From: an uncultured Clostridia bacterium
GTDB taxonomy: Bacteria; Bacillota; Clostridia; TANB77; CAG-508
Assembly (NCBI GenBank): GCA_947623945.1
Contig: CANQHU010000001.1
Coordinates: forward strand, 15,705 to 79,704
Reading direction: 5' to 3'
Length of the DNA stretch: 64,000 nucleotides
Below are positions 1 to 15,852 of the stretch, one piece after another (the stretch's first letter is position 1; each line of letters opens with the position of its first letter). Position numbers and translations under genes: made by a program. The notes beneath the pieces were generated by a model. That model made no database searches, had not been told where the DNA came from, and was given only the letters and a program-made list of their open reading frames with translations.

Positions 1-907
1 GCGAACAGCGCTGAAACGCATATTTTTCCACCTCTATTGTTGTGTTTGGCAGAACAATGTTTTGTAACTGGTCACAATCCTGAAAGGCATGGGCGGAAAT
101 CTTTTCAAGAGACTCCGGAAAAGTTACTGTTTGTAATTTGGAACAGTGTTCAAATGCATTTTCGCCAATCTCTTTTAACTGACCGGATAATTGAATGTCA
201 GACAGTTCTGAACAGTTTAAGAATGCGCCATATCCAAGTTGTGTCACTGCATCCGGAAGAGACATATTTGACAGGGAAGTGCAATCTTCAAACGCAAAGG
301 ACGAAATGGTCTGTACACTGTCAGGCAACGCAACCTGCTGTAATGCTCCACACTGGTTAAACATGGTACTGGAAATGTCTTTGACAGGACCTAATATTTC
401 TACTTTTACTAAATCGTTGCATTGAGCAAAAGCACCATACCCAATCACATCAACGGCAGCGGGAACCGATGCCTCTACCAATCCACTGCCTGTAAAGGCA
501 TTGTCTCCAATATATCGCAAGGATTCTGGCAGTAAAATATTTGTCAATTCGGAACACTGTTGAAATGCAGAGCGTCGAATTTTTGTCAGTCCATTTGGCA
601 AATCCACCTGTTCCAATTGGTAACAGCCTTGAAATACGCCATCCTCCAATTTGGTGACCTTCTCCGGTAATGTCATCTGTTTTAATTCAATACAACCGGC
701 AAAGGCAAAAGCACCAATCATTTCTACCGTATCCGGCAGATGAATTTCCGTACATTCACAATCTGCAAAAGCCCGAAATCCGATTCCGGTAACCGGCTTG
801 CCGTCCAATTCTTTCGGCACGGTGACTACATCTTTGGAAAATCCCATATATTCCGTAATCGTCACCCCTGTTTCATTTGTAACATACTCATAAAGTTCTT
901 CTTTCAC
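1..907 (-). CDS. BspA-type leucine-rich-repeat (LRR_5-like) protein, N-terminal ~302 codons; 3' end runs off the window
   Basis: My translation of the minus strand from GTG 905-907 (SD aaaggag upstream) is stop-free to position 1: VKEELYEYVTNETGVTITEYMGF...GKPVTGIGFRAFADCECTEIHLPDTVEMIGAFAFAGC... It has the same N-cap and ~23-aa xLPxSVxxIGxxAFxxC repeats as the LRR genes at 2759-8086. The GTG overlaps the TGA of the upstream gene (GTGA). It is absent from the ORF track because no stop lies inside the window. Confidence 0.7.
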   Translation of the reverse strand, partial: MKEELYEYVTNETGVTITEYMGFSKDVVTVPKELDGKPVTGIGFRAFADCECTEIHLPDTVEMIGAFAFAGCIELKQMTLPEKVTKLEDGVFQGCYQLEQVDLPNGLTKIRRSAFQQCSELTNILLPESLRYIGDNAFTGSGLVEASVPAAVDVIGYGAFAQCNDLVKVEILGPVKDISSTMFNQCGALQQVALPDSVQTISSFAFEDCTSLSNMSLPDAVTQLGYGAFLNCSELSDIQLSGQLKEIGENAFEHCSKLQTVTFPESLEKISAHAFQDCDQLQNIVLPNTTIEVEKYAFQRCS

Positions 908-2169
908 GATATCACTCCTTTCTGGTTCGTTGTAATCATTTCTATTTTCTTATGCCGATGAATGGCAATCCCATAACAAGTTAATCGGATGAGTTCCAAT
1001 CCCAAAATATTGCCCCAAATTCCGGCTATATATCCATGACCAAGATACACCAAGAACCAAGTTCCTGCGACGGCACCAAGAAAGCCAAGAATGGAAGAAG
1101 TCAGTAATACGGTATCCCAAAGATGAATGTTAATGACTGCATAGACTGTTTCGGATACCGAGATAGCGAGCAGAGCCAATAACATCAGTAACAAATAAGG
1201 GAAACATTCCAAAAAACTCAGTTTTCCGTGACAGAGGAACAAAAAGAAAATTCCCAAAGTCATATTGGCAAAAAAGGATGTTCCGAGCAATTCCCGGAAC
1301 ATTCGCAGAGCATAGGCTAAATCTCGTTGAAACATCCGTCGGGAAGTCTGAAACAATTTTCGTACAATGTTCTTATAACAGGCGTCTGTCGAAGTCGTTT
1401 TGATGTACAACATCACGGAAGAACAGACGCCAATAATAGCGTATTGCCGACTGGGCAATACACTTAACGCCATATTTGCAATGCTTCTGGTGCCCCGGGC
1501 GAAGAAATTCATGATAACACGAGGCAAACCAATTTGGAATACTTCCAAAAAAGCACTTCGGTTCATTACACCAGCTACTTCCGGCTCAAAGAAATGTCCG
1601 GAAAGTATCAAACCCCCGACAAAAACTAAAACCTGTAAAAAGGAACTCACACCCGACATCACCAACATACCCGGCAGACCCCAGCCAAGGTGTAAGGCAA
1701 GAATATCCGTCGCAATCAATGCAATCATCCATACCACAGAGGAAATACTATATAATTTATGATACCCCTTCAACTGAATATGATAGTCATAAAACCAGTT
1801 GACGCCACGGAACGGGAACATGATAGCCATACTCTTAATGCAAATAATCAATAACTTCTGTTGGGCCGTAGAAAAAGCAAACAAACTGGCAATTCTCTCA
1901 CTTCCAAAGAATGTGAGGACACTAATCAATAAGGAAACAACCAACTGTACCAGACAACACATTCTTCGGTTACGGTTGGTTGTACGATTCGTCTGGCTGC
2001 CGATGGAAACTAACGCATAGCACACACTTTCAATGGCTCCACAGGCAGAGGCAACACAAATCTCATCAAGACCAAGATGATTGGCAAACGATGAGTCGAT
2101 AATCCCTGCCATACTCGTCATAACGCCCATCACCGTCAATGCCAGAAAATTTTTCTTCAAGGTTGTCAT
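904..2169 (-). CDS. Polytopic membrane transporter, MATE/MOP-superfamily-like (421 aa)
   Basis: ORF track. Hydrophobic throughout. The N-terminus LKKNFLALTVMGVMTSMAGIIDSSFANHLGLDEICVASACGAIESV resembles the MATE N-terminal consensus. Paralogous to 39398-40612. SD GGAGG is separated from the ATG by an A10 run (T10 at 2171-2180 on +). Confidence 0.5.
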   Translation of the reverse strand: MTTLKKNFLALTVMGVMTSMAGIIDSSFANHLGLDEICVASACGAIESVCYALVSIGSQTNRTTNRNRRMCCLVQLVVSLLISVLTFFGSERIASLFAFSTAQQKLLIICIKSMAIMFPFRGVNWFYDYHIQLKGYHKLYSISSVVWMIALIATDILALHLGWGLPGMLVMSGVSSFLQVLVFVGGLILSGHFFEPEVAGVMNRSAFLEVFQIGLPRVIMNFFARGTRSIANMALSVLPSRQYAIIGVCSSVMLYIKTTSTDACYKNIVRKLFQTSRRMFQRDLAYALRMFRELLGTSFFANMTLGIFFLFLCHGKLSFLECFPYLLLMLLALLAISVSETVYAVINIHLWDTVLLTSSILGFLGAVAGTWFLVYLGHGYIAGIWGNILGLELIRLTCYGIAIHRHKKIEMITTNQKGVIS

Positions 2170-2255
2170 GTTTTTTTTTTGTTCCTCCTAAACGATATTC
2201 TTAGTTTATTATAAGGGGAACTGGTCTAAAATTCAAGAGACTGTCAAGCAGTCTC

Positions 2256-2735
2256 TTACAAAGACGACGGGTCTAATATTTGAGAAACGGTCAAACCACT
2301 GCCAACAGCGCCTACGGAATATGACTTTGCAGAATGCGGTTCTTCTAAGTCCGCAAGGTCTTCATCCGATAACTGTATCTCATTGTTTTCTGCTAACAAG
2401 GATTGTTTGAGGGAATTTGGAATTGTGCCTTTTTCAACAATTTCTTTGTTCACAGTAAAATAATTCTGGCTTATCTTTTTGATACTGTCACTTACTTCTT
2501 CCACCATAGTACAGGATGGCATTGAATTAGCACTGGCATCGTATTCGCACCCGATATACCGGTTTTTATTCGTCCCATTTATCAATGTCAAATCAACGAG
2601 TAAATTTGCTTTCTCCGCCTGTATCTCCTTTTCAATCTCGTCCATAGAATTTAGTGGATTTTCATAAGATGTGGCAATGACAAGAAAATCATATGCCTCA
2701 TTCTTTAACTTAAAAACTTCAAAATTGTGATTCAT
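2256..2735 (-). CDS. Hypothetical leaderless protein (159 aa) carrying the IQLSDEDLADL tail motif
   Basis: ORF track 2256-2759. The internal ATG (M9, MNHNFEVF) has SD aaaggaga 6 nt upstream, and the longer start would overlap the preceding stop. The motif lies ~30 aa before the C-terminus. Confidence 0.6.
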   Translation of the reverse strand: MNHNFEVFKLKNEAYDFLVIATSYENPLNSMDEIEKEIQAEKANLLVDLTLINGTNKNRYIGCEYDASANSMPSCTMVEEVSDSIKKISQNYFTVNKEIVEKGTIPNSLKQSLLAENNEIQLSDEDLADLEEPHSAKSYSVGAVGSGLTVSQILDPSSL

Positions 2736-2758: not shown

Positions 2759-3013
2759 TTATTTTGCTAGGTCATTTTCTTCTAAATCTGCAAGGTCATC
2801 AGCCGATAATTGCATCTCATATGGAGTACCTGTAAAAGCGGTTTCTGCTATTTGTGCATCCGTTGGAATAGAAATTTCTTTCAAAGTACAATTTTTAAAC
2901 GCTTCTTTTCCGATGTGTGTTACACTGTCCGGGATTGTAATGTTTGTAAGAGATTTTTGTGTCAAAGTAATACCATTTTCTGCTGTTTCATATTCAAAAT
3001 TTACATTTTCCAT
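2759..3013 (-). CDS. Minimal BspA-type LRR protein (84 aa): N-cap + ~2 repeats + acidic tail
   Basis: MENVNFEYETAENGITLTQ...IPDSVTHIGKEAFKNC...AETAFTGTPYEMQLSADDLADLEENDLAK. SD aaggaagg. The 3' ~70 nt are near-identical to the 3' end of 3043-3699. Confidence 0.65.
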   Translation of the reverse strand: MENVNFEYETAENGITLTQKSLTNITIPDSVTHIGKEAFKNCTLKEISIPTDAQIAETAFTGTPYEMQLSADDLADLEENDLAK

Positions 3014-3042
3014 TGTTTAATACCTTCCTTTCTTATCTGTTA

Positions 3043-3699
3043 CTACTTCAATATGTCCTTTTCTGAGTCTGCAACATCATCATCTGATAATTGCATTGCA
3101 TATGGAGTATCTGTAAAAGCGGTTTCTGCTATTTGTGCATCCTTTGGAATGATAATTTCTTGTAAGCCACATAAAGCAAATGCAGAGTCTCCAATTTTTG
3201 TCACACTATTGGGAATTGTAGCATGAACCAGCTCATAACAGCAGCTAAATGTACCACATTTAATTTCTTTCACACCCTCTGGGATTGTGATTTCTGTAAG
3301 GGACTCACAGTTTGCAAATGCAAAGGCTCCAATTTCTTTCACACCCTCTGGGATTGTAATTTCTGTAAGGGACGCACAGTCTTCAAATGTACTATCTTCA
3401 ATTTCTTTCACACCCTCTGGGATTGTGATTTCTGTGAGAGACTCACAGCCATGAAACGCCCTATCTCCAATGCTTGTTACCGTATCTGGAATGATAACGG
3501 TTTTTATCTCCTCTCCATATTGATAGCCACGACCCTTATAACCATAACCGATTGGAGAAAATAGACTACGGCCAAGAGAAACTACCTTCTTTCCATCTAT
3601 CTCTTCCGGGATATCAATATGAATTTTTTCCTCTCCAAGATATTTGGTCAAAGTGATACCGTTTTCTGTTGTTTCATATTCATAATTTGCATTCTTCAT
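3043..3699 (-). CDS. BspA-type LRR protein (218 aa), leaderless, acidic tail
   Basis: ORF track 3043-3783. Start moved to M29 (MKNANYEYETTENGITLTKY), which has SD aaggaagg. Contains repeats EITIPEGVKEIxxxAFxxCxSLT and the tail MQLSDDDVADSEKDILK. Confidence 0.75.
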   Translation of the reverse strand: MKNANYEYETTENGITLTKYLGEEKIHIDIPEEIDGKKVVSLGRSLFSPIGYGYKGRGYQYGEEIKTVIIPDTVTSIGDRAFHGCESLTEITIPEGVKEIEDSTFEDCASLTEITIPEGVKEIGAFAFANCESLTEITIPEGVKEIKCGTFSCCYELVHATIPNSVTKIGDSAFALCGLQEIIIPKDAQIAETAFTDTPYAMQLSDDDVADSEKDILK

Positions 3700-3724
3700 T
3701 GTTTGATACCTTCCTTTCTTATTT

Positions 3725-5536
3725 TTATACTTCAGGACCGTATATGGCCATTTCACTCGATTTAAGCGGTTCCAGCTCTGCAATATCTTCTATAGATAAT
3801 CTCATGCTGTCATATGGAGTTCCGTGAAAGGGTTCCCCCTCCATTTCCACACTTTCCGGAATTGAAGCGTGTTGCAGCGATTCACAGTTTGCAAAGGCAC
3901 GAGCGTTCAGATGTACATTTTCCGGCAAGGTAAGCCGCTCCAAATGATAACAGTTTTGGAACGCCCAGCCACCAATTCTGATTACCGCATCCGGTATAGT
4001 CAGTTCTTTGATGTGGGTTTCTTCAAAGGTATATCCGTTAATCCACTCCAATGTATCCGGGAATGTAACCTCTTCCAAGCTGGAGCAGTGAGAAAATGCC
4101 TTAGATGCAATACGACGCAGATTATCCGAAAATGCTATCGACTCTAAATGGGAACAGTTCATAAATGTCCCGTCCTTGATTTCGGTTACCCCATTTGGAA
4201 TCGAAGCCGTCCATAAGGAGGAGCAATTGCGGAATGCATATTCCCCAATTTCGATTACCGAATCCGAAATGAAAACTTCTTTTAAGTTACTGCACCATGC
4301 AAACGCCATTGGTCCAATTTTTGTGACCGTATCCGGGATTTCCACACTTTGCACCAAATCCCATTGTTGAAATGCCCGGTCTCCGATTTCTGTCACCGGT
4401 TTTCCATCAATTTCTCTTGGAATGGATACAATAAATGCGTTCCCCCGATAGCGGGTAATCGTAATCCCGGTATCATTTTCCACATAATCATATGGTTTTG
4501 TTGTTTCCTGCCGTCCATAATGCAGGGTACCGGCAAAGGTATTCCGGTCAAATTTTGCATCTTCGGGAAAGGAAAGGGATTCTAATGCGACACAGTTTTG
4601 AAACGCCTGTACGCCGACCTCTTTTATCGTATCCGGAGAGGTAAGGGCACTTAGATGAATACAATTATGAAATGCATTATCCCCAATGCGGGTCGTTTCC
4701 TCCCCAAAAGACACAGCCTGCAATGCGGTACAATCTTCCATGGCGCCATTTGGAATTTCAGAGACGCCGTCCGGAAACGCAATGGTTTTTAATGAACGAC
4801 AGCCAGAAAAGGCATAGGCGCCAATCCGTTTTAGCGTACTTGGCATTTGAATATCCTGTAAGGAAACGCAGCCTTCCAACACACCCGAACCTTGTGAATT
4901 TTCTTCGTTTTCCATGCCGTCGCCGAAAGTCAATAACCCTTCCGGCAGAGAAAGGAGCTCCAAGCGTTTACAACCGTGAAAGGCGCCGTCCCAGATGTGT
5001 TGTACGGAATTGGGTACAACAACTTCTTTTAGATTGACACAGTTTTGAAACATATGATAATTTAATATTTCTAGCTGATTGGATAACTGCACTTCTTTTA
5101 ACTTCGTACACTCGGCAAACACACCGACATCCATGCGCGTAACGGAATCTGGAATCGTCATTCGTTCCAAGTTGCTGCATTCCGCAAAGGCATACCGATG
5201 AATCGCTGTTACCGTATCCGGAATTTCTACTTCCGTTAAAGAGGGACACTTTTGGAAAACATGACCACTTAATTCTGTTAAATTTCGAGACAACCACACT
5301 TTCTGTAACGCACGGCAATTATGAAAGGCCCCAACTCCGATGTTGGTGACAGAGTCGGGAATATGAACTTCCTGAATGATAGAATTGCCGGCAAAGGCAT
5401 TGTCTGCAATTTGAGTCACCGGCCTTCCACCCAAACTTTCCGGAATCCAAATCTTCGTTTCCGTGAAAGAATCCGGAATGACCGGTTCGTAATTTACAAT
5501 GGTCACGCCGGTGTCGTTATTTTGATATTCATACAT
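3725..5536 (-). CDS. BspA-type LRR protein (603 aa), leaderless, acidic tail
   Basis: ORF track 3725-5563. Start moved to M10 (MYEYQNNDTGVTIVNYE), which has an SD. Contains more than 20 IPDSVTxIGxxAFxxC repeats and the tail MRLSIEDIAELEPLK. Confidence 0.8.
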   Translation of the reverse strand: MYEYQNNDTGVTIVNYEPVIPDSFTETKIWIPESLGGRPVTQIADNAFAGNSIIQEVHIPDSVTNIGVGAFHNCRALQKVWLSRNLTELSGHVFQKCPSLTEVEIPDTVTAIHRYAFAECSNLERMTIPDSVTRMDVGVFAECTKLKEVQLSNQLEILNYHMFQNCVNLKEVVVPNSVQHIWDGAFHGCKRLELLSLPEGLLTFGDGMENEENSQGSGVLEGCVSLQDIQMPSTLKRIGAYAFSGCRSLKTIAFPDGVSEIPNGAMEDCTALQAVSFGEETTRIGDNAFHNCIHLSALTSPDTIKEVGVQAFQNCVALESLSFPEDAKFDRNTFAGTLHYGRQETTKPYDYVENDTGITITRYRGNAFIVSIPREIDGKPVTEIGDRAFQQWDLVQSVEIPDTVTKIGPMAFAWCSNLKEVFISDSVIEIGEYAFRNCSSLWTASIPNGVTEIKDGTFMNCSHLESIAFSDNLRRIASKAFSHCSSLEEVTFPDTLEWINGYTFEETHIKELTIPDAVIRIGGWAFQNCYHLERLTLPENVHLNARAFANCESLQHASIPESVEMEGEPFHGTPYDSMRLSIEDIAELEPLKSSEMAIYGPEV

Positions 5537-5575: not shown

Positions 5576-6634
5576 TCAGCGCACCAGCCCGGTATCTCCC
5601 AAGCCTGCAATATTCCCATCCGATATTCGCATAGCTCCATAAGGTGTATCTTCAAATGCAGTTTCCGCTACTTTCACATTCTTTGGAAGAGAAACCTCTT
5701 TCAAAGACGGACAGTAAGAAAATGCTCCGCCCTCAATTTCTGTTACGGAGTCCGGAATGATAACCTGTTTCAGATTTGGACACTGGGAAAAACCGCCCGG
5801 ACCAATCGTGGTGATTCCCTCCGGAATCTCCAACTTTTCCACATCATAGGTATTCCATCCAAAATTGGAATACGGGGCCATAATCGTCGTCACTTTTCTT
5901 CCATAAACTTCTGTTGGAATCGGCGTATGGCTGTTTGGGCCAGACACATCAATGCCAAGAATGGTCACGGTTTCGTCATCGTCCTCTACTCGGCACAGCA
6001 AATCCTCTATTTGTACAGAAATTCCGCCAAGATTTTGGTTGGCCGCCCATGTGGCTTCATAGGGTGTATGGGTAAAGGGGCATCCGTCCCAAAAAAATTC
6101 CTCATCTTTCGCGTATTTTGGCAAAACCACTTCTGTTAAACGCTCACAATCTGCAAACGACTTGTATCCAATTCTTATCACAGCGTCCGGAATTTCCACT
6201 TTCTCTAACCGGCTGCAATGAGCAAAGGCATAACCTGAAATAGTGCCTAATGACTTGGATAAGGTTACGCTTTCCAATTCCACACAGTTTGAAAAGACAC
6301 TGGGGCCCATAAGGGCCACGCTATCCGGGATAGTAATCGCTTTCAATTTACAATCCCGAAACGCCTCTCCTCCGATTTCCCTTAATCCATCGGGTAACGA
6401 AACCGTGGTTAATTGATTATACTCGGCAAAAGCGTAAGCTCCGATTTCTGTCACCGGCTTCCCGTCAATGGTATCCGGAATGGTAAGCTCTGTAACGGTA
6501 CGGTCTGCATATTCCTCCACAGTGATGCCGGTTTCATTTTCCGTATATGTCCATAGACCACTGGTCATTCGTGTTTTCCCTGCCTCTTCCCATTCTGCTT
6601 CTAAAACGGATAGTTCTGTTTCTTCATTTCTCAT
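5576..6634 (-). CDS. BspA-type LRR protein (352 aa), leaderless, acidic tail
   Basis: ORF track 5576-6661. Start moved to M10 (MRNEETELSV), which has SD aaggaag. Contains LRR repeats and the tail MRISDGNIAGLGDTGLVR. Confidence 0.8.
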   Translation of the reverse strand: MRNEETELSVLEAEWEEAGKTRMTSGLWTYTENETGITVEEYADRTVTELTIPDTIDGKPVTEIGAYAFAEYNQLTTVSLPDGLREIGGEAFRDCKLKAITIPDSVALMGPSVFSNCVELESVTLSKSLGTISGYAFAHCSRLEKVEIPDAVIRIGYKSFADCERLTEVVLPKYAKDEEFFWDGCPFTHTPYEATWAANQNLGGISVQIEDLLCRVEDDDETVTILGIDVSGPNSHTPIPTEVYGRKVTTIMAPYSNFGWNTYDVEKLEIPEGITTIGPGGFSQCPNLKQVIIPDSVTEIEGGAFSYCPSLKEVSLPKNVKVAETAFEDTPYGAMRISDGNIAGLGDTGLVR

Positions 6635-6673: not shown

Positions 6674-8086
6674 TCAGCGCACCAGCCCGGTATCTCCCAA
6701 ACCGTCAAGGTCATTGCTGGACAGTCCGAACGGCCCCTGTTCCATTTCCTCTTTGGCAATCGGTGTATTCCGAAAGGCTTCCGGGTGTACCCGTACTGAA
6801 TCGGCAGCGTCGTCATAGGTGACATCGGATAGTCTGGTACAAGAACGGAACGCATCGGCCTGAATTTCCTCCACCGATTCCGGAATTTCCATCTTCGTAA
6901 TATTGGTGCAATAGCCAAACGCCCCGGAATCTATGGATTCTAACTGCTGCGGCAGGGCTACATCGGTTAAGGACTCGCATCCATAGAAAGTTCGCTCTTT
7001 TAAATAAATCACACTGTTGGAAAGCTGTACCTGTTTTAAATTCGTACACTGATTGAACGCATCAGCTCCGATGTTGGTTACCGTATTGGGAAGAGAAACA
7101 GACTCTAACTGATTACAGCAATGGAATGCATGGTCTCCAATCGAAACCATACCGGCTTTTTCCGAAATGTCCAAATTGCATTCCTGCAAGGCAATACAAT
7201 TTTCAAAGGCAGCCAGTCCAATGGATTGAATCGTCGGCGGAAGAGTGACCTTCTCCAAATCCCAACATTCCGCAAAGGCATAATTTTCAATACGGGTTAC
7301 CGGCTTTCCGTTAATGGTCTCCGGAATCTCAATCTCGTGATGTACTCGTTTGCCGGCAAATCCGGTAATCGTGATTTCCTCGTCGCGTTCCAGATAAGTG
7401 AAATCTTCTGGCCGTTTGCCGCCTCGTTTTGCCTCCGGCATATCCAAGGACTTACAGCCATCAAACGCCCGCTCGGCAAGGTCTGCTTTTGCCTTATCAT
7501 CAAAGCGAATGCCCAATAATTTATGACAGCCATAAAAGGCATAATCATCAATTCGTTCCAACTGGTCAGAAAAGTGCAGCCAAGTTAAGCTGTTACAACA
7601 GCCGAATGCATCTTGTCCCACTTCTTTGACGGCCGGTGGAATGGTTAGGTTTTGTAAGACCAGACAGTTATAAAAGGTACAGGGAGCAATCTTTGTCATC
7701 TGTTCCGATAATTTGGCCGTGTGAAGCTGTACATCGTTGGCAAACACCTCAGAGCCTAAATAGTTTACACTGTCCGGAAGAGAAATAGACGGTAACACGG
7801 TACAATCCCGAAAGGCACCATCGTTTATCCGCTGCAAACCCTCCGGCAACTGAATGGACGCCAGATTCGTACACCCTTCAAAGGCATAGGCACCAACGGT
7901 TTTTACCTCTCTTGGTAACGAGACAAATTTGACATCATTATTTCCACAAAAGGCATATTCGCCAATCTCATCTACCGGTTTTCCGTTAATGGTATCCGGT
8001 AAAGTCACCATCTCTTCTTTTCCCATATATCGGGTAATCGTAATACCATCTGCTTTTTCCTTATATTCTACATTTCCTAATCGCAT
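6674..8086 (-). CDS. BspA-type LRR protein (470 aa), leaderless, acidic tail
   Basis: ORF track 6674-8098. Start moved to M5 (MRLGNVEYKEKADGITITRY), which has SD aaaggatgg. Tail LSSNDLDGLGDTGLVR. The last 8 codons plus the downstream spacer are identical to those of 5576-6634. Confidence 0.8.
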   Translation of the reverse strand: MRLGNVEYKEKADGITITRYMGKEEMVTLPDTINGKPVDEIGEYAFCGNNDVKFVSLPREVKTVGAYAFEGCTNLASIQLPEGLQRINDGAFRDCTVLPSISLPDSVNYLGSEVFANDVQLHTAKLSEQMTKIAPCTFYNCLVLQNLTIPPAVKEVGQDAFGCCNSLTWLHFSDQLERIDDYAFYGCHKLLGIRFDDKAKADLAERAFDGCKSLDMPEAKRGGKRPEDFTYLERDEEITITGFAGKRVHHEIEIPETINGKPVTRIENYAFAECWDLEKVTLPPTIQSIGLAAFENCIALQECNLDISEKAGMVSIGDHAFHCCNQLESVSLPNTVTNIGADAFNQCTNLKQVQLSNSVIYLKERTFYGCESLTDVALPQQLESIDSGAFGYCTNITKMEIPESVEEIQADAFRSCTRLSDVTYDDAADSVRVHPEAFRNTPIAKEEMEQGPFGLSSNDLDGLGDTGLVR

Positions 8087-8158: not shown

Positions 8159-9214
8159 TCACTTCGTCGGGGCTTTCTTAACTTCTTCTTTCTCTGCTTC
8201 CTCATTCAATTCTGCAAGGTCTTCGTCGGCAATCACTACTTCTTCTTTGGGAAGCGGTGGCAACTGCGCCTCGGCCAGTTCCACCATGCGTTTGATAATA
8301 TCCTCTTTTTCACCTTCTATCCGGCATCCCGCTGCCTGTTTGTGTCCACCGCCGCCAAATTCAGCGGCTATCTGATTGGCGTCCACCAATCCATTCGAGC
8401 GGATGGAACAGCCAAACTCACCGGATTCATGGCAGTTGTGCAGCCAGATAGCGCATTCGACGCCGTCCGTAGACCGCAGGGTATCAGCAATGCCGCCGGT
8501 ATCCTTTGCCGTGGCGCCACATTCATCAAAGACATCTTTGGTCACGCAGGATACAATAATGCGTCCGCCGGAGTATAAGGTCGCCGCGTCTAAGGCTTTG
8601 GCCCACATCTTATTTTGCGTAAAATTTTTCTTGTAAAAGGTTTCCTCAATCACATATCGGTTTCTGGCGCCCTTTCCCATTAAAGTTCCCGCTATTTGCA
8701 TGGTTTCCGGACTGGTATTTTCATATTTGAACACACCGGTGTCATGCACCATGCCCAGATACAAGGCTTCCGCGCATTCCTGCCCAATCTTTGCTTCGTC
8801 TAAGAAATGAAAAACCATCTCCGACGCCGAACTGGCATTGGCGTCAATATAACAAAGGTCACCAAACCCCGGATTGCTGGCATGGTGGTCGATACACACC
8901 GTTCGTTTTGCCGACTCATAAAGCGGCGCAAAATCTCCCAGCCGTTCGAGTGTGGCGCAATCCAATGACAGACACAAATCATAAGTCTTCTCCTGCGGCT
9001 CCAATAAGACTTCATCCGCGCCTCCCAAAAAGGCGAGCTTTTCTTTGACGCCGCCTAAATACACATCGACCGGTTTTTCCGGATAATTGTCCTTCATATA
9101 GTTATAAAATCCCAGACACGAGCCGACGCAATCTCCGTCCGGCCCGATATGTCCCAGCACTACAATGTTCTTTGCCTCTTCGATTTCTTTCCAAAAATCC
9201 TGTTTCGTTGCCAT
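8159..9214 (-). CDS. nrnA: DHH/DHHA1 phosphoesterase, NrnA-like (nanoRNase/pAp phosphatase family) with a ~40-aa C-terminal extension carrying the acidic tail motif
   Basis: Motifs HIGPDGDCVGS, CIDHHASN (DHH) and GGGGHKQAAG (DHHA1). The extension is ...LPPLPKEEVVIADEDLAELNEEAEKEEVKKAPTK. Confidence 0.8.
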   Translation of the reverse strand: MATKQDFWKEIEEAKNIVVLGHIGPDGDCVGSCLGFYNYMKDNYPEKPVDVYLGGVKEKLAFLGGADEVLLEPQEKTYDLCLSLDCATLERLGDFAPLYESAKRTVCIDHHASNPGFGDLCYIDANASSASEMVFHFLDEAKIGQECAEALYLGMVHDTGVFKYENTSPETMQIAGTLMGKGARNRYVIEETFYKKNFTQNKMWAKALDAATLYSGGRIIVSCVTKDVFDECGATAKDTGGIADTLRSTDGVECAIWLHNCHESGEFGCSIRSNGLVDANQIAAEFGGGGHKQAAGCRIEGEKEDIIKRMVELAEAQLPPLPKEEVVIADEDLAELNEEAEKEEVKKAPTK

Positions 9215-9330: not shown

Positions 9331-11070
9331 CTATTTTGCCGGCGGCGCCGCACCTTCACTTAAATCATGAATGGCTTCTTCAAAGTCGAAATCGCCTGCC
9401 TGCGCCGTTTCCAAGAGTACCTTTCCATCTATCCGGCAAAAGGTTTCATATAATGCTTTGGTGGACATTTCTCTATAAGTGGAAAGGTCCACTCTTTGTT
9501 CCTCTACTACCTCAGACAATAATTTGTCTGCCCAACTGGCGTCTACCGTTAAGGAATGCAAATGGGAAAGTTTTCGTTTGGTTTCGACCGGATAATACTG
9601 GCCGGACGCTGTTGTAATGTCTAAGTCTCCCTTTTGGTGTGTGGGCAAGGAAATCGTCCACTTTCCCTTCACATCCGTGCGGCCGGTTACATAATCACAC
9701 ATATCCGGAATGATGCCCTCCTGCGCCAATACCGTGCGCATTTCGTCCGGAGATAAGGTTTGTATCGTGCGTTTTGTCGCTGCATCTTGGATAAGCAATC
9801 GGGACATTTTTAAATCTTCCGTAATTTCTACCAGCATCGGTTTCACATTTAACAGACCTTGTTCCCGTAATTGGTGTACTTTCACGGCTGCTACAGCGCG
9901 AGAGCCAAAATTCACAATCTCTCTGTCCATCGCGTCTAAAAACCGGTCTTTATTCTGCGGTTTGGAAAAATCCAATGGGCCGCCTTCGCCCATACAAGGC
10001 GCATAGCAATTCCAAATATGGTCGGGAATCAAATTGCCGGATTTCGTCAAAATGGAAAACAAATCGGGTGTCGAAAGCTCTCGCAGCGTCTCCCGCTGTT
10101 CCTTCGTTATCGTCGGCTCCGTGTGTGCCGTAATGCCCGGGTTTTGATAATAATATCCATTGGCCTGCATAATCTGAAAAATTCCACCATATACCGGCGT
10201 CGTTCCTTCTCCAAAGAGTTTTCCTTTCGCTTCGGTTACCATACTTTTTCGGTCTAACTTCCAAAGAGCATCGTATGCCTGTTCATGACCGGATTGATAG
10301 GCCCATTTCATCACCTGATTGGCCTGCTGCCAGCCCCGGATATTCGCCGTTACCCGTTCTTCCAATGCACCCTGCGTATGCAGACGACCGTCTTGATGTG
10401 GGTCTTTTTGATAATCTTCATAGGTATAATCTGGATGATATCCCGGAAGACGCTTTCCATCTTCTAACACATTCTCCAGCCGCTTGGCAAAATCCGGTGT
10501 CGTATAAGCGAGAAGAAGTAAGAACTGCTCCTGCTCTTTTAATCCATCGGCACCTTCCAAACGAGCCGTATGTCGTTCGATATAATCAGCTATATCATCT
10601 AAATTCTCCAGATAGAATATGGTCGTAAACGGCGTCTTTTCCGAAAGTGGTTCGGTTCCTGCCCATCGGTTTCGCCCCTCCTCATTGACATAAAGCGGAG
10701 CCACCTCCGGGTGACTGTAACAAAAATCAGCCATCTGCTCCGGCGTATATTGAATAAAGACATCAAGCGTCTCTTTTGGCAGTATTTCCGTAATGGACTT
10801 TGCCCGGCGCACAACCAATGGAGAGTTGTCTCGTAATTGGTCTTTCGCATATTTATGAAATAGCTTTTGAGAGGAAACGCCTTCTCGGAAATCTTCGCTG
10901 GTTGTCAAAGTCTCATAATCAATCAAGCCCGACTCATATAAGAGCCGTCCCATTTCTTTTGGACCAACTGTCTGTCCCAAACGGGCGCCCTCTACCTGAA
11001 TTTCATTGCCGCGTCCGGTAATGCTCTTTCCCTGTACCGTGCGTGACAATGCTTCATAATCTGTCAGCAT
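9331..11070 (-). CDS. Hypothetical protein (579 aa), paralog family with 11080-11703 and 11780-13828
   Basis: ORF track. Shares blocks with the 682-aa protein, e.g. VGPKEMGRLLYESGLIDYETLTTSEDFREGV vs MGPKELARLIYQSDYIDYKTLVSSPDFREGI, and REIVNFGSRAVAAVK vs KEIINFGPRASAMIK. Weak tail FDFEEAIHDLSEGAAPPAK. No known domain recognised. Confidence 0.7.
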   Translation of the reverse strand: MLTDYEALSRTVQGKSITGRGNEIQVEGARLGQTVGPKEMGRLLYESGLIDYETLTTSEDFREGVSSQKLFHKYAKDQLRDNSPLVVRRAKSITEILPKETLDVFIQYTPEQMADFCYSHPEVAPLYVNEEGRNRWAGTEPLSEKTPFTTIFYLENLDDIADYIERHTARLEGADGLKEQEQFLLLLAYTTPDFAKRLENVLEDGKRLPGYHPDYTYEDYQKDPHQDGRLHTQGALEERVTANIRGWQQANQVMKWAYQSGHEQAYDALWKLDRKSMVTEAKGKLFGEGTTPVYGGIFQIMQANGYYYQNPGITAHTEPTITKEQRETLRELSTPDLFSILTKSGNLIPDHIWNCYAPCMGEGGPLDFSKPQNKDRFLDAMDREIVNFGSRAVAAVKVHQLREQGLLNVKPMLVEITEDLKMSRLLIQDAATKRTIQTLSPDEMRTVLAQEGIIPDMCDYVTGRTDVKGKWTISLPTHQKGDLDITTASGQYYPVETKRKLSHLHSLTVDASWADKLLSEVVEEQRVDLSTYREMSTKALYETFCRIDGKVLLETAQAGDFDFEEAIHDLSEGAAPPAK

Positions 11071-11079: not shown

Positions 11080-11703
11080 CTACCTTTCTGGTCCTGCCAC
11101 TGTCAAATCTGCTATATCGGTATCCGATAAGTGAAGAAGTTCATTTGCCCGTTCTGTCGCCAACTCGGCAAACTGCGGAATCGTATTTTCCAAATAATTG
11201 CATAAAATCTGCGTATGCTGCCGTGTCGTTTCCGCATCAAAATGCTGTCTTGCTTCCTCTTCTACCGCTTCTTTGATATGGTACTGCTTTCCCACGCCAT
11301 AGTCAATTTCATCGACTCGTTCTAACAAAGTGAATAATTCTTTGGGTGTCAGTTGGTCAAAAACCGTGTAGACCGATTCCGGTATCAAATGCTTTGTATC
11401 CACCCGAATCGGCGTTTCTTCTCCAATGCGGTCACCATATACAGCAAACAGCCTATCCGTTTCTATCTCTGCAAGGTCTAACCCATAATTCGTTTCCTGC
11501 TCATATTCTATATCCGATAACAAACCGGACTGATAAAATGCCCGCATCCATTCTGCACCGGATAAGCGTCCGGAAACGGATTCTCCTTCTTCCCGGCGAT
11601 AACACACCATATGCAGGTCATTTTGTCTGGCAATTAAGGGAACCGTCTGTTCCTGTCCAGACCCATCTTGATAAGTCATTGGGTTTCGATTTGATGTTTG
11701 CAT
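11080..11703 (-). CDS. Hypothetical protein (207 aa), short paralog of the N-terminal region of the 579/682-aa family; acidic tail
   Basis: MRAFYQSGLLSDIEYEQE resembles the shared N-terminal block. Tail LHLSDTDIADLTVAGPER. SD ggaggaataaaATG. Confidence 0.65.
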   Translation of the reverse strand: MQTSNRNPMTYQDGSGQEQTVPLIARQNDLHMVCYRREEGESVSGRLSGAEWMRAFYQSGLLSDIEYEQETNYGLDLAEIETDRLFAVYGDRIGEETPIRVDTKHLIPESVYTVFDQLTPKELFTLLERVDEIDYGVGKQYHIKEAVEEEARQHFDAETTRQHTQILCNYLENTIPQFAELATERANELLHLSDTDIADLTVAGPER

Positions 11704-11779: not shown

Positions 11780-13828
11780 TTACTGCTTTAAGGTTTCTTC
11801 TTCCGATAAGTCCTCAATATCGGAATCGGCAACATCATACAATATGTTTGGTCCCGGTTCCGGGAATGGGTCCAGAAGCCAGTTGTCTGGACCATCTTCT
11901 TCCCCCGGTAATGGACGCGGACCCGGAAGTGATGATGGTTTTGGACCACTTTCTGGACCATCTTCTTCTCCCGGTGATGGACTTGGACCACCTTCCGGGC
12001 CATTCTCTCCTCCCGGTGATGGACTTGGACCATTATCCGGGCCATTGTCCGGTTTATCATCTTTTCCCGGAAATTCCGGAAATGTTGGCCAGTCTCTTTC
12101 ATCTGGCGATAAGGAATGCCCATCAGACCCATAATCTCCATACCATGGTCGTGAATCATCCGGGCCAAACAAGCCCGCTATATCTTCATCCGTTAAATCT
12201 AAGTCTGTTGGTTTCTTCTGCCGTTCCTCATCCATATAGTAAAACCGGTCTAACAACTGTTCCGTCGTCATGGTTTGAAAGTCCTGATAAGAGACGGCAT
12301 AGGTTTCCACACAGTTGCGATATTTCCAAAATTTCTGCTTATCATTTAAGCTGTCTCGAAGAGACCAATCTGTCACTAATATCTCCGGAGTCACAGAATA
12401 AAAGATGCCATTTTCTTTGGTGATGTCCTGTTCCTTTTTATAAACATTTCCAGAAATGTTCCATGCTGCAAAATCATATGGGTCCGGAACTATCTGATGC
12501 ATAATGACATAGGCTCGTACCAAATCCGGGTCAGACGCCAATAAGATATCTTTTGTGGGAGTATCTTTGATACACAGCTTTGGAATCGTAACGCCTTCCA
12601 CTTCCGGCACCGGCATATCATTTCGCTCCAAATGGACAAAATCCTCTTCGATATAATGATTGGCTTTTATCATCGCAGACGCGCGAGGGCCAAAGTTGAT
12701 AATCTCTTTATCCAAGGCGTTTAGCAGATAATCATAACGATGCGGCGCTTTATAATCCAGCGGTTTTCCGGATGTAATGCATTTTCGGTATACTTCCTGC
12801 TGCTTTTCATTGGAAAAGAACGAATGGCCGCATTTCGTTTCGTCCGTAATATAGGTAAACAGCTCACTTGCGGATATCTTATGGAAATCGTCCCGAATGT
12901 CGTCTGTTATCGTCGATTCCTGATGCACTGTGACGCCATAACGCTCTATCTTTGGAGAATTCATGGCAATCAGCACATGAGAGGCCGGATACTCACTCTT
13001 CGGCCGTTTGACAGAAAAGCCGCTTTGCTCCATCCATTTTGCCGTCTGTTCCGCTTCCTGCCAGCCGCGTTCCATGCCGTCTAATTTGTCAAGTACTTTC
13101 CATTGGTTTTTCATTTTCGGCGATACCTCGGCGTCCTGAAAGTGAATAAAGGCTTTCGCATCTTCTAAATAGGTCTCCATCCGCTCGGCAAAATCATAAT
13201 TCGGAGAAGTATTCATTAACAGATAAATAAATTGTTCCCTGCTTTCCGACTGTAACGCCATATCGTGCAAATCGGTGCTGTGGATTTTTATTTCTTTCTG
13301 CTCCCATGTTTCCATCGGATTATTTTCGATAATACGGTCATCCACGCTCCACCGGGATTGGTCACGATTGTAATACATCGGAGCCAAATCCGGATGCTTT
13401 TCACAAAAATCAGCCAGCCGTTCGGATGGGAACGACATCAATACGGCCATGGTCTCATCGGGAATGTCCCATTTGTTTACATCCACTAAAAAGGGATGCT
13501 CCGGACTGATATTCGGGGCCACATACTTGTCAAACAATTCATCGGTAGAAATCCCTTCCCGGAAATCGGGGCTGGAGACTAAGGTTTTATAGTCGATGTA
13601 ATCCGACTGATAAATCAATCGCGCCAGCTCTTTGGGGCCCATCATTTGAGAAAGCTCCTCTTTCAGATTGGCCGCATCCCCCGTCAAATCCGTATATTCT
13701 GCCGTTTTACGGTTGCCCTTGGCCCACGGATGTTTTTCTCCGTAGCCAAGGTGAAGCGCGTGCCGCTCTTTGGAATTTAAGTCTTCTTGTGCAAACAGCC
13801 GTTTAGCTGCATCAACATCACTTACCAT
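11780..13828 (-). CDS. Hypothetical protein (682 aa), paralog of 9331-11070, with a Pro/Gly-rich insertion flanked by two copies of the acidic motif
   Basis: ORF track. Has an internal DLDLTDEDIAGL, then ~110 aa of PG-rich low complexity (GPDNGPSPSPGGENGPEGGPSPSPGEEDGPESGP), then the terminal YDVADSDIEDLSEEETLKQ. Confidence 0.7.
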   Translation of the reverse strand: MVSDVDAAKRLFAQEDLNSKERHALHLGYGEKHPWAKGNRKTAEYTDLTGDAANLKEELSQMMGPKELARLIYQSDYIDYKTLVSSPDFREGISTDELFDKYVAPNISPEHPFLVDVNKWDIPDETMAVLMSFPSERLADFCEKHPDLAPMYYNRDQSRWSVDDRIIENNPMETWEQKEIKIHSTDLHDMALQSESREQFIYLLMNTSPNYDFAERMETYLEDAKAFIHFQDAEVSPKMKNQWKVLDKLDGMERGWQEAEQTAKWMEQSGFSVKRPKSEYPASHVLIAMNSPKIERYGVTVHQESTITDDIRDDFHKISASELFTYITDETKCGHSFFSNEKQQEVYRKCITSGKPLDYKAPHRYDYLLNALDKEIINFGPRASAMIKANHYIEEDFVHLERNDMPVPEVEGVTIPKLCIKDTPTKDILLASDPDLVRAYVIMHQIVPDPYDFAAWNISGNVYKKEQDITKENGIFYSVTPEILVTDWSLRDSLNDKQKFWKYRNCVETYAVSYQDFQTMTTEQLLDRFYYMDEERQKKPTDLDLTDEDIAGLFGPDDSRPWYGDYGSDGHSLSPDERDWPTFPEFPGKDDKPDNGPDNGPSPSPGGENGPEGGPSPSPGEEDGPESGPKPSSLPGPRPLPGEEDGPDNWLLDPFPEPGPNILYDVADSDIEDLSEEETLKQ

Positions 13829-13842
13829 AGCTTATCCTCCCC

Positions 13843-15288
13843 TTACAAAGTCTCTTCAGCCGATTCCGTAATTTCATCCAAATCGCCATCGCCTAATGAA
13901 TACGGATTCTGCTTTTCCATCGTCATATGTGCATAATCGGCATACCGCTCGGTAACATCGGACAGCCGGTAGGTGTTGCTTACCCAGTCAAAGGAAATCA
14001 TCTCTCCATCTCCCAAGTCTACAAACTCATCATCTTCGTCATCCCAATCGTCCCATGTGGTATAAGCAAATTGCTGCTGCTCAAAGCTCTCGCCAATCCC
14101 ATCGGAATTCTGACCCTCAATCCAATTAGAAATTTTATAAAGCTCATAATCATCTAACGGCTCATTTGCCACTAACAGGATGTCGCCCTCGTAACCGTTG
14201 TCATTCAATATCCATTCAATATTGGCCACTTTATCTTTTATCTCTGGCAACGCCTCGGTCAAAAACTTAGTCATTGGCGGCTCTGTCAAATATTCTTTGG
14301 CGGCTTCTACATCATTCACCGTACCGGTTAAGCTGAAGTGTGTGCCGTATACCTTCGTTGTATCCTGATTCTCGTCCATATCCAAGGTATCATCTAAGGA
14401 ATATTCCTGCACATTCCACTGGAACCAGCCATAATCCTCTAAATGCGCCTGTAAGAACTGCGTCAAATCAGACTGGAGCTCTCTATCTGTCAGCTCCCGA
14501 TGAGCGACAACCGTAACAACATTAAACTCATCCCCGTCACAAGTCCATGTGACATCGGCAATATCCCGTTTTAAAGCCGGATTTTGATTGAATTCTTTGA
14601 ACCGCTCCGTCATGGTATCGGTATTCTGATTGATAAAATCATTTTCCGTATCCGTATTATAATAATTGAACTGCGTTGTATATACATAGAGCTTTTCTTC
14701 CGGCATCTGCTGGTGAGTCAACTGATTTTCCTCGACATCCACAGCCAGAGAATAAGAGATAACCTTAAATTTTCCGTTCGACCAATCGCTCAAATAGCCC
14801 TTGGTCATCATATCTTCTGTCATCGGATACTTTGCTGCAAATTCTTTGTTCAAGTATCCAATCTGATGCTCCTGCCCATCCGTCTGTTCCACATATACGG
14901 CAATCGCATTGGGGTCCACCGGATTTGTCGGTTCCGGCACGAGATGAAAGTCCATCTCATAAGTTGTCTTCTTATCCGTCTTTCCAATTTCGTCTTTGAC
15001 AAAAGAAGACGGGTCGCTGTCACGAAAAGTAATCCCAACGACCTTCATTTCCGGCACCGTGGCAGCCGCAAAATGATGCACCAGCGTATAGAACTGCTTC
15101 TCACTCATGGCATAATCCTTTGCCTGAAAACCTCTTGCCATCTCTTCGACCGGGAACTTTCGCCGGTTTCCCTCTTCATCATAATTGAGTACAGTAGCGT
15201 CTGGAAACTCCAAAATTCTATCCACCAGCTCCCGTGGCGTCAACTGTTTTAATTCGTCCCGCTTTTCATTGACTAATTTTTTTCGCAT
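13843..15288 (-). CDS. HIRAN-domain protein (481 aa) with acidic tail
   Basis: ORF track 13843-15294 (TTG). ATG M3 has SD aaagggga. The HIRAN-like block is VVGITFRD...FHLVPEPTNPVDPNAIAVYVEQTDGQEHQIGYLNKEFAAKY. Tail YSLGDGDLDEITESAEETL. Confidence 0.6.
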   Translation of the reverse strand: MRKKLVNEKRDELKQLTPRELVDRILEFPDATVLNYDEEGNRRKFPVEEMARGFQAKDYAMSEKQFYTLVHHFAAATVPEMKVVGITFRDSDPSSFVKDEIGKTDKKTTYEMDFHLVPEPTNPVDPNAIAVYVEQTDGQEHQIGYLNKEFAAKYPMTEDMMTKGYLSDWSNGKFKVISYSLAVDVEENQLTHQQMPEEKLYVYTTQFNYYNTDTENDFINQNTDTMTERFKEFNQNPALKRDIADVTWTCDGDEFNVVTVVAHRELTDRELQSDLTQFLQAHLEDYGWFQWNVQEYSLDDTLDMDENQDTTKVYGTHFSLTGTVNDVEAAKEYLTEPPMTKFLTEALPEIKDKVANIEWILNDNGYEGDILLVANEPLDDYELYKISNWIEGQNSDGIGESFEQQQFAYTTWDDWDDEDDEFVDLGDGEMISFDWVSNTYRLSDVTERYADYAHMTMEKQNPYSLGDGDLDEITESAEETL

Positions 15289-15477
15289 AATCAATTTCCC
15301 CTTTCTAATTTATTACTATTTGTATTCTATCATACTTTAACAAAATCTGCTATCTGCTTGTCACTCAAAAAAAGACCGGAGGAAACCACTCCCCCGGCCA
15401 AAACCGAAAAGACTCTGTATTCCATTTAGGAATTCATTGTCCACATTATCATATCATGAAATACTTGAAAAAGCAAC

Positions 15478-15852
15478 CTACAGTGCCAAGCCGTCTGCTT
15501 CTAAAGAAAAGTTCAAATCGTCGTCGGTTAATCCCTGCTCCTCCTGTTCCTCTTCTACATTCCATTCCCCTTTGGCTGCTACGCCTGCATGGAATTCTGC
15601 AAATTGAGATGCGACAAAGCCAGAAAGCGCCAGCTTATCCCGCTGTCCCAATGGCTCTTCGGTAGCAATCCGCACCATATTGAACTTATCCGGGTTGGGG
15701 TCATTTTCATTGTAAAACCAATCCATCTCCGTGATGTGTTTTCCGGTTTCCGGATACTGCTCGACCATCCTGTCCAATAAATCATCGGACTCTATGGCAG
15801 TAACCATAGCTTCCGGCAAGGTTCGATTAAAAGTATATCCATAAATAAACAT
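15478..15852 (-). CDS. Small acidic protein (124 aa) with tail LTDDDLNFSLEADGLAL
   Basis: ORF track 15478-16005. Start moved to MFIYGYTFNRT, 7 nt after SD gggagg. It resembles the repeated modules in the C-terminal half of the HIRAN protein (W...V...EPL...EL pattern). Confidence 0.55.
   Translation of the reverse strand: MFIYGYTFNRTLPEAMVTAIESDDLLDRMVEQYPETGKHITEMDWFYNENDPNPDKFNMVRIATEEPLGQRDKLALSGFVASQFAEFHAGVAAKGEWNVEEEQEEQGLTDDDLNFSLEADGLAL

Follow-up and report, generated by a model that had tools for sequence, protein, structure and literature searches.

The 64-kb window examined here, i.e. the whole stretch of DNA that was analysed, belongs to a 181,759-bp contig from a human-gut metagenome (record position = window position + 78,250), which represents a conjugative element of 182 kb. 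At one end of the window, the minus strand carries a block of genes for soluble proteins of unrelated folds that end in a similar short acidic peptide (the tail), and beside this block lies an operon for an envelope-spanning transfer machine, in line with the secretion-like apparatus reported there by a first-pass annotation of the sequence. That annotation had assigned the tail to twelve open reading frames (ORFs), all of which lie on the minus strand and agree in their coordinates with independent gene calls for the source contig (Table 1).

A motif model cleanly separates the copies in 10 of the 12 genes from all other ORFs of the window: with a tail hidden Markov model (HMM) the carriers score 12-22 bits, and the best of the other ~330 window ORFs reaches 1.5 bits. 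The tail of the HIRAN protein is weak on its own and is accepted through the clear tails of its orthologues. The copy proposed for the orphan-family gene at 9331-11070, EEAIHDLSE, gives nothing above noise with the HMM and was dropped. Since scoring an HMM on its own members is circular, the test was run leaving out one family at a time. The tails of the RnlB-like protein (16.7 bits), the DHH protein (rank 1), the orphan family and g15478, together with 3 of the 5 leucine-rich repeat (LRR) tails, still score above every non-member ORF, while the HIRAN tail and the other 2 LRR tails fail to outrank them. A regular expression for the motif, applied to all six frames of the window, matches only within the proposed carrier ORFs. 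The motif is thus confined to the block, as had been claimed, in that neither the expression nor the HMM matches other ORFs of the window; the block itself, however, is larger than was thought, with three more tailed genes to the left of the window (see below).

The carriers comprise LRR_5 proteins, an RnlB-like antitoxin, a DHH phosphoesterase, a HIRAN protein and orphans, which upholds the view that the tail is not part of one domain family. The Pfam RnlB_antitoxin match (E = 2.6e-18, residues 24-110) ends at residue 110 of 159/167, ahead of the tail, and the NCBIfam NrnA model stops at residue 309 of 351 in the DHH protein, 42 residues short of the C-terminus, so that the tail forms an extra segment appended to the DHH enzyme. 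The tail itself is not represented by any Pfam or NCBIfam model. In most carriers the motif ends 4-13 residues before the C-terminus, and the net charge of the last 25 residues ranges from -2 to -10, with the exception of the RnlB-like protein (charge 0), in which the motif lies 27 residues in. None of the carriers contains a hydrophobic segment (the maximum 19-residue Kyte-Doolittle mean is <1.4 throughout), which bears out their earlier description as leaderless proteins with no TM segment, and the one membrane protein in the window's part of the block (904-2169) is tail-less. A low-confidence AlphaFold2 model of the 11080 product has a helix at residues 194-203; a model of the orphan N-domain, built using three paralogues, was of insufficient quality for fold searching (predicted local distance difference test score, 46).

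The product of g11780 contains two copies of the motif, one internal and one terminal, with a Pro/Gly/Glu-rich repeat linker between them. It looks as if the original tail had become internal and had then been replaced by the second copy, and the pairing of an internal with a terminal copy would indicate selection for the terminal position. The linker is encoded by three 38-nt direct repeats (11886-12031). g11780 is paralogous to 9331-11070 (29% identity over 557 aa) and to a 230-aa gene left of the window. A homology search with the 682-aa product returned only itself, the low-complexity region having probably swamped the word index.

At the DNA level, codon choice differs among the tail copies, and direct repeats account only for the LRR units, two junctions between LRR genes, and the similar 3' ends of 2759 and 3043. 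Since the codons differ and the DNA repeats are limited, conservation is at the level of the peptide. The first-pass annotation had come to the same view, but had described near-identical DNA around the motif for the 2759/3043 pair alone, whereas it is also found at the two LRR junctions, namely 5551-5610 vs. 6649-6708 (95%; 3' end plus junction of 5576 vs. 6674) and 2961-3036 vs. 3647-3722 (89%). Each of these junctions runs from the last codons of one gene across the intergenic sequence into the start of its neighbour, which suggests that local duplication or gene conversion took place recently. A shared DNA or RNA element, such as a promoter or an attC-like site, was ruled out as the conserved entity because the codons differ and the repeats are limited to the LRR units and the two junctions.

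Related elements were compared using 14 metagenome loci anchored on the 317-aa apparatus protein (40-49% identical to the window copy) and further loci anchored on HIRAN-family proteins. Their layout is that of the window, with the apparatus followed by MobL, a ribbon-helix-helix (RHH) gene paired with a gene for a ~205-aa protein, a variable region and the coupling protein, the last of which was seen in this arrangement in L202 and L203. At the syntenic position, the tail is found on other proteins in eight loci (L139, L142, L146, L147, L148, L198, L201 and L202). A pentapeptide-repeat protein of one relative ends in VELSDDDLSDLNDVKKGLEL, and further tails in the variable regions read LSLSLDDLDALKPDENMEL, LALTDADLARLSDEDSLKL, VTLTAEDLNFSQDSKRLEL and ILQESDLTFADDTIDFVSDTSL. 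The counterpart of g15478 in L201, matched by position and not by alignment, is a 127-aa protein ending in TISDQDLKTIEDVNKVTEQL. Overall, the tail is carried by at least nine unrelated protein families, all soluble and signal-less, whereas four small membrane proteins encoded between the HIRAN gene and the coupling-protein gene of L203 are all tail-less. A tail-like acidic peptide, GEVSDEDLEQLLEDVEGIPNTPIRE, also forms the C-terminus of some MobL relaxase-domain proteins. A lack of the tail in orthologues, which the first-pass annotation had regarded as evidence against its own proposal, was not observed: orthologues as well as other proteins of divergent relatives carry it.

The HIRAN family shows the same persistence in larger numbers. 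An HMMER search of 1.84 billion cluster representatives yielded 43 representatives of the HIRAN N-terminal module; the orthologues are ~55% identical over the N-terminal 190 residues and far less similar in the C-terminal half, but the tail is kept. Using a simple criterion ([LIVM][ST]xx[DN][LIVMF] 6-20 residues from the end, with a charge of -3 or less), 27 of the 43 carry a tail (about 31-35 by eye). The same criterion is passed by 3 of 106 stand-alone proteins homologous to the ~135-aa second domain of the HIRAN cargo (residues ~313-445), by none of 120 homologues of the apparatus ATPase, by 3 of 4507 ORFs of viral contigs (two of the three deliberately seeded) and by 1 of 1245 ORFs of random genome loci. 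For control ORFs this amounts to about 0.08%, and a stricter bipartite expression matches none of the 4507. The tail is thus very rare at unrelated C-termini, a point on which the first-pass annotation had asked for controls. The second HIRAN-cargo domain is not represented in Pfam but is widespread, with >100 stand-alone cluster representatives, many of them ending in SFDWxTNxYK followed by a few residues.

From 56 tails, the consensus is x-L-[ST]-[DE]-x-D-[LI]-x-[F/x]-[L/A], followed by 5-12 mostly acidic residues and a hydrophobic residue among the last four. The canonical form is P-L-x-L-T-[DE]-x-D-L-x-F-[AG]-x-Q-[ML]-x-L-S-D-F-G-L-x at the stop codon (examples: window-type, QLSDEDLADLEENDLAK; canonical, SLTDADLDFAKQMDLSDFGLY). 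The key Asp is present in 98% of the tails, the preceding Leu in 86% and the S/T in 93%; the D-L pair is followed by 9-18 residues, a hydrophobic residue is found among the last four in 52 of the 56, and the mean charge is -4.3. The final residues vary (L, V, R, K, Q). Such a sequence reads as a capped, short acidic amphipathic helix, in which the Leu...Leu pair would form a hydrophobic staple and the S/T...D pair a capping box. It is the combination of motif, C-terminal position and acidic, hydrophobic-ended tail that is diagnostic. The canonical bipartite pattern gave 47 chance matches in 185,579 species-representative genomes, none of them C-terminal.

These counts bear on the simplest alternative, namely that the tail has no specific function and reflects common descent or 3'-end recombination acting on a generic helix-capping sequence. 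The block does contain paralogues (seven LRR genes, and three or four genes of the orphan family), two junctions are near-identical in DNA, and LSDEDLAEL-like peptides are common in unrelated proteins. However, the families that carry the tail are too many and too diverse for this, with differing codons; the tail persists in orthologues whose adjacent sequence has diverged; control C-termini almost never have it; and stand-alone domain homologues are tail-less. The leave-one-out, orthologue and control counts largely refute this explanation, and we regard it as extremely improbable.

Reading 10 kb to the left of window position 1 (locus L149 of the same contig, whose coordinates subtracted from 12170 give the window position) showed that the cargo block continues with three more tailed genes, bringing the total to about fifteen tailed soluble proteins. 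Going away from the window, the order is the LRR gene cut by the window edge, the 541-aa LRR gene, the tail-less 134-aa gene, the 230-aa orphan-family paralogue and the coupling-protein gene. The block fills the interval from the apparatus operon to the gene of a VirD4/TraG-type coupling protein, and the element is therefore conjugative.

Table 1. Features of the cargo block, its flanks and the transfer apparatus (window positions; each tail is followed by the stop codon unless otherwise stated; aa, amino acids; TM, transmembrane)
Feature	Position	Strand	Length (aa)	Description	Tail	Motif position
LRR gene	left of window	-	541	LRR protein	VLSDADLSMLDQTATDEMSL	
Small gene	left of window	-	134		none	
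Orphan-family paralogue	left of window	-	230	orphan family	SLSESDLTELDSADAYSL	
Coupling protein	left end of block	-	1255	VirD4/TraG-type; matches PF02534 and PF12696		
LRR gene cut by window edge	1..907	-	348	first ~302 codons in window	TQLSENDIAGLEEDGLTL	outside window
Polytopic membrane protein	904..2169	-	421	in block	none	
RnlB gene	2256..2735	-	159	RnlB-antitoxin-like	QLSDEDLADLEE + 27 residues ending LDPSSL	2346-2372
LRR gene	2759..3013	-	84	one LRR_5 unit plus tail	QLSADDLADLEENDLAK	2783-2809
LRR gene	3043..3699	-	218	LRR_5	QLSDDDVADSEKDILK	3064-3090
LRR gene	3725..5536	-	603	LRR_5	RLSIEDIAELEPLKSSEMAIYGPEV	3773-3799
LRR gene	5576..6634	-	352	LRR_5	RISDGNIAGLGDTGLVR	5600-5626
LRR gene	6674..8086	-	470	BspA-type LRR_5	GLSSNDLDGLGDTGLVR	6698-6724
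DHH gene	8159..9214	-	351	NrnA-like DHH/DHHA1 phosphoesterase (Pfam DHH + DHHA1)	VIADEDLAELNEEAEKEEVKKAPTK	8207-8233
Orphan-family gene	9331..11070	-	579	in block	none convincing	
Cargo gene 4	11080..11703	-	207	distant paralogue of orphan N-domain	HLSDTDIADLTVAGPER	11104-11130
Cargo gene 3 (g11780)	11780..13828	-	682	orphan family; internal copy LTDEDIAGL at 12170-12196	VADSDIEDLSEEETLKQ	11807-11833
Cargo gene 2	13843..15288	-	481	HIRAN (Pfam) in conserved N-terminal module	SLGDGDLDEITESAEETL	13870-13896
Cargo gene 1 (g15478)	15478..15852	-	124	no known family	GLTDDDLNFSLEADGLAL	15505-15531
RHH-like pair	15954..16842	+	94 and 203	putative RHH-like protein (by eye, no family-model match) and 203-aa protein; divergently oriented		
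Transfer-apparatus operon	16980..35864	-		bitopic/polytopic membrane proteins (Pfam/NCBIfam scans); synteny kept in relatives		
Conserved apparatus protein	17366-18319	-	317			
CwlT-like hydrolase	20420-22177	-		lysozyme domain and C-terminal Cys/His peptidase-like region		
AAA+ ATPase	22184-24199	-		Clp/Hsp100-like		
Small three-TM protein	in apparatus operon	-	157			
Bitopic proteins	in apparatus operon	-		VirB8-like in size		
VirB6-like protein	26471-30160	-	1229	polytopic, seven TM segments		
LPXTG-anchored protein	41396-47047	+	1883	Listeria-Bacteroides repeats; probably mating adhesin		

At its C-terminus the coupling protein has a family-specific domain of ~95 residues, which is kept in the relatives and of which the adjacent 500-aa protein contains four copies. 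Matches (tblastn) to the coupling proteins of the pAYP1020/pGKT2 type stop before residues 1157-1253, leaving this C-terminal domain unmatched there. The domain, which is thus unmatched in the tail-less pAYP1020/pGKT2, is a candidate receptor for the tail. The domain also occurs once in a 102-aa protein and again in a 662-aa protein (L149 15152-21265), whose N-terminus matches coupling-protein residues 1040-1129. In two relatives (L202 14146-22028 and L203 13444-20970) the coupling-protein gene appears to be split: an N-terminal piece of ~310 aa ends past the Walker A motif (at ITRGGKGKLARLVG), and the remainder lies 3-5 kb downstream, as an 812-aa protein in L203 and as an 899-aa product running off the locus in L202, with a 640-aa DUF7487 protein between the two pieces. 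An insertion or an intron-like element might explain the split.

At the other edge of the block, the RHH-like gene and its 203-aa partner are kept at the upstream side of the cargo region in all relatives examined, and may encode relaxosome accessory proteins or regulators. In relatives the pair adjoins the MobL gene, which is absent from that position in this element; a search for inverted repeats that might mark an oriT close to the RHH gene gave nothing. Strong terminator-like hairpins follow g15478 (15399-15374, minus strand) and the last apparatus gene (16879-16852, minus strand), and the cargo block and the apparatus operon are therefore probably not one transcript. In L198, a cluster for NAD salvage and synthesis (2820-8445; NrtR-like NUDIX, isochorismatase, NMN adenylyltransferase-like, NAPRTase and NAD synthase) adjoins the RHH gene and tailed HIRAN-family genes, and may counter NAD-depleting defence systems.

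With regard to the apparatus, the order of genes over 20420-30160 is that of a polytopic protein, a small three-TM protein, the ATPase, the hydrolase and bitopic proteins, and the AAA+ gene occupies the VirB4 slot of Gram-positive type IV secretion system (T4SS) operons such as those of pCF10 and ICEBs1. Parts of the FATA type of mating-pair formation system are present, namely the coupling protein, the hydrolase, the VirB6-like protein and the adhesin, the MobL relaxase being found in relatives only. A 690-aa protein has no Walker A motif. Scans of the apparatus with Pfam and NCBIfam revealed no DotL, DotM or IcmSW families, and pairwise comparison of the apparatus proteins with the neighbours of the pAYP1020 and pGKT2 genes gave no significant similarity. 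A CAAX/CPBP intramembrane protease is encoded at 61568-62212 (plus strand), and a CPBP protease is also found near the pAYP1020 transfer genes.

The AAA+ protein has two AAA+ modules and two Walker A motifs, and matches ClpB, ClpA and ClpC with E-values down to 1e-39. The first-pass annotation had described it as an ATPase of the AAA+ unfoldase type. That label is unsupported because both pore-loop tyrosine motifs are missing: in an alignment with ClpB, the KYR motif of D1 is replaced and the GYVG pore loop of D2 is deleted. Furthermore, the protein has no N-domain (homology begins at ClpA residue ~189), no M-domain and no IGF/IGL ClpP-binding loop, and the receptor expected from known T4SSs is the coupling protein. 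It is therefore very unlikely that the AAA+ protein itself recognizes the tail and feeds the cargo into the channel independently of a coupling protein. Its two modules and its VirB4-like operon position would suit such a role. So would the requirement that T4SS substrates be unfolded (PMC5826034). On the other hand, besides the missing N-domain and pore loops, homologous ATPases are encoded on pAYP1020 and pGKT2, whose sequenced parts are tail-less, and a VirD4-type coupling protein is at hand. Loading of a payload into an extracellular contractile injection system (eCIS), such as a Photorhabdus virulence cassette (PVC), or into a type VI secretion system, which the AAA+ protein might also suggest, was rejected, no sheath, tube or baseplate families having been found.

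Turning to degradation, the Clp-family ATPase encoded nearby also invites the idea that the tail is a degron, shortening the life of its carriers through host Clp/Lon or the element's AAA+ protein and thereby limiting them to a brief action after entry or to a low level in the donor. Disordered C-terminal tags with a hydrophobic end are classic degrons, and the block adjoins the relaxase/RHH side, as leading regions do. This too we find distinctly unlikely. The element's AAA+ protein has neither the ClpP loop nor the pore-loop tyrosines; the ssrA/ClpX degron has a non-polar LAA end and little other constraint, whereas the tails are strongly acidic with a conserved helix-cap motif; and a bipartite motif of 20 residues that is kept over ~40 clusters at 50% identity exceeds what a degron usually needs.

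Some of the same features would accommodate an intracellular docking motif, by which the tail would bind a cytoplasmic hub, chaperone, adaptor, AAA+ ATPase or relaxosome to assemble, sequester or regulate its carriers, with no export. Short acidic helices of amphipathic character are typical linear interaction motifs, the gene of the AAA+ ATPase belongs to the conserved core and adjoins the block, the RHH/203-aa pair flanks the cargo region, and small tail-less proteins (134 aa and 122 aa) are interspersed in the block. We consider docking rather unlikely, as it leaves unexplained both the strict C-terminal position with its terminal hydrophobic residue and the clustering of unrelated anti-defence-like carriers between the relaxase and coupling-protein genes, and the AAA+ protein has neither the N-domain, the usual docking site for adaptors and substrates, nor pore loops.

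The ATPase also served to delimit the family of elements. More than 500 homologues were found at E <= 1e-40, the closest ~120 being 69-81% identical and lying on metagenome contigs of 90-230 kb. Their loci share the order of the apparatus genes, after which come genes for a MobL relaxase-domain protein, for sortase/pilin or for a T2SSE ATPase. About one third of the close homologues (e.g. P0005, P0007, P0013 and P0014) are ~1000-1050 aa long and contain LAGLIDADG/homing-endonuclease domains (PF14528, PF05204), and are therefore intein-interrupted. The 317-aa apparatus protein has no relative in species-representative genomes or in IMG/VR, a tblastn comparison of the HIRAN cargo with PLSDB gave no match, and no DNA matches were obtained in phage and plasmid collections. 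That the element might be a phage was rejected: matches to capsid, terminase and portal proteins are lacking, and PHROGs gave only lysozyme/tail-lysozyme and Clp-like matches. The family is known essentially from metagenomes, appears to be undescribed, and is made up of human-gut conjugative elements of 160-230 kb, probably from Firmicutes. The ATPase and the coupling protein both have distant homologues, which occur together with MobL on pAYP1020-like plasmids of Staphylococcus and on plasmids of Gordonia, Rhodococcus and Streptomyces, and this co-occurrence defines a T4SS subtype. pAYP1020 is of this subtype, yet has no convincing tails, and pGKT2 has none in its sequenced parts. As a separate observation, two Flg_new-repeat proteins of L202 (2901-5492 and 8851-9888), one with a signal peptide and one without, share another C-terminal peptide (GFGNSLSSGDGLDGIWGILGE, GLGNSVSDDGLAGLWNSLEE) that falls outside the tail consensus.

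Taken together, we favour the reading that the tail could well be a C-terminal recruitment or type IV secretion signal for establishment or anti-defence cargo, a reading held tentatively. It is put forward because the tail is terminal, exposed, found on unrelated soluble proteins that have no Sec signal and absent from the membrane proteins checked, because the genes lie between the relaxase and coupling-protein genes, and because the tail is kept across the family and MobL proteins have a similar ending. Judging from their domains, the cargo proteins (an RnlB-like antitoxin, an NrnA-like phosphoesterase, and HIRAN, pentapeptide-repeat and LRR proteins) may have roles in establishment or anti-defence. 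HIRAN domains are DNA-end binders, pentapeptide-repeat proteins are of a kind that mimics DNA, and NrnA-like enzymes are oligonucleotide phosphoesterases. Recognition of the exposed tail in the donor would fall to the coupling protein or to an adaptor attached to it. The conjugation channel would then carry the tailed proteins into the recipient, either together with the DNA or before it, and there they would act at once as establishment or anti-defence factors. The earlier proposal that the tail tags cargo for the adjacent machine therefore remains plausible, with the machine now identified as a Gram-positive conjugative T4SS that has a VirD4-type coupling protein.

Several known systems deliver proteins in comparable ways. 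The Dot/Icm signal of Legionella and Coxiella, read by DotL-DotM, likewise resides in the last ~20-30 residues, is acidic with a hydrophobic residue near the C-terminus and is found on many unrelated soluble proteins; there too a VirD4-family coupling protein is involved, and DotM of the coupling complex reads acidic C-terminal signals (PMC5802825). The Dot/Icm E-block, however, is loose and Glu-rich (-10 to -17) with a hydrophobic residue at -3/-4, whereas the motif described here is an Asp-centred helix cap, L-[ST]-[DE]-x-D-[LI], in a Gram-positive host and a conjugative system of the MobL type, with targets that are presumably bacteria. In Agrobacterium VirB/VirD4 and in Bartonella, the signal is also C-terminal, unstructured and dependent on the coupling protein, but it is positively charged and Arg-rich, with or without a BID domain. 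The tails have the opposite charge, and those within the last 25 residues do not show the net positive C-terminus of VirB/VirD4-type substrates. The XVIPCD of the Xanthomonas X-Tfe effectors, which is bound by the all-alpha domain of VirD4, is likewise a C-terminal module on diverse T4SS effectors aimed at bacteria (PMC8740702), but it is a folded domain of ~120 residues, compared to a peptide of ~20 residues here, and there is no sequence similarity.

Conjugative T4SSs are known to transfer plasmid proteins (PMC8406263), and effectors escort DNA during conjugative transfer (PMC5512222). The PsiB, SSB and ParB proteins of F-like pED208, the TraC and Sog primases of RP4 and ColIb, and the escort effectors and polyvalent proteins of Firmicutes conjugative elements represent the same delivery idea, with the genes located beside the transfer genes (PMC8406263, PMC5512222). 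These substrates share no sequence consensus, whereas the present cohort consists of single-domain proteins with one tag. Leading-region anti-defence islands are likewise co-directional, on the relaxase or accessory side and anti-defence-like in content, but their genes are thought to act by early expression in the recipient and have no shared peptide tag. Finally, encapsulin cargo-loading peptides and the N-terminal leaders of PVC/eCIS payloads are also short terminal peptides on unrelated cargo encoded beside its machine; the machines and the consensus are different, and no capsid-like or contractile-sheath genes were found here.

It should be noted that a number of points weigh against the secretion-signal reading. 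No match to VirB4, AAA_10 or CagE was found in the proteins scanned, which cover 84 kb of the contig; the remaining ~100 kb may hold a VirB4, but on the 84 kb the apparatus departs from the textbook T4SS. No relaxase gene turned up in the part of the contig that was read, and the related loci were sampled only within 10 kb of their anchor genes. The core 9-mers (e.g. LSDEDLAEL) are generic helix-start peptides that occur at any position of unrelated proteins: degenerate DNA patterns for the core gave at least 96 in-frame matches to unrelated proteins in viral contigs, with ~11% near the C-terminus among the matches listed. The DHH, 11080 and 3725 tails have less canonical endings, and the connection of the tail to a receptor is one that we infer. 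In addition, a co-directional block beside the RHH pair and, in relatives, MobL, with RnlB, DHH, HIRAN and pentapeptide-repeat content, also fits a leading region that is expressed in the recipient and for which protein export is not required.

How conjugative T4SSs choose their protein substrates is poorly understood. To our knowledge, no consensus signal is known for Gram-positive conjugative T4SSs; our literature searches found none, nor did they yield any description of the tail, in agreement with the earlier remark that no signal with this consensus had been described. The tail thus appears to be a variant of the known C-terminal T4SS signals in an apparently undescribed element family. 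The stronger claim that it represents the first sequence-defined translocation signal of a Gram-positive conjugative T4SS, of an undescribed subtype with a Clp-like ATPase in the VirB4 position and with the C-terminal repeat domain of the coupling protein as the receptor, is possible but doubtful. The comparison also highlights a T4SS subtype, with MobL, a large coupling protein and a Clp-like AAA+ ATPase, that is common to Staphylococcus and actinobacterial plasmids. If the tail is indeed a secretion signal, the cargo of abundant, uncultured megaplasmid-like elements of the gut would be predictable from sequence alone, and there would be a handle for distinguishing the injection of anti-defence proteins from their early expression in the recipient only. 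It would also provide a portable tag for engineered protein delivery between gut Firmicutes.

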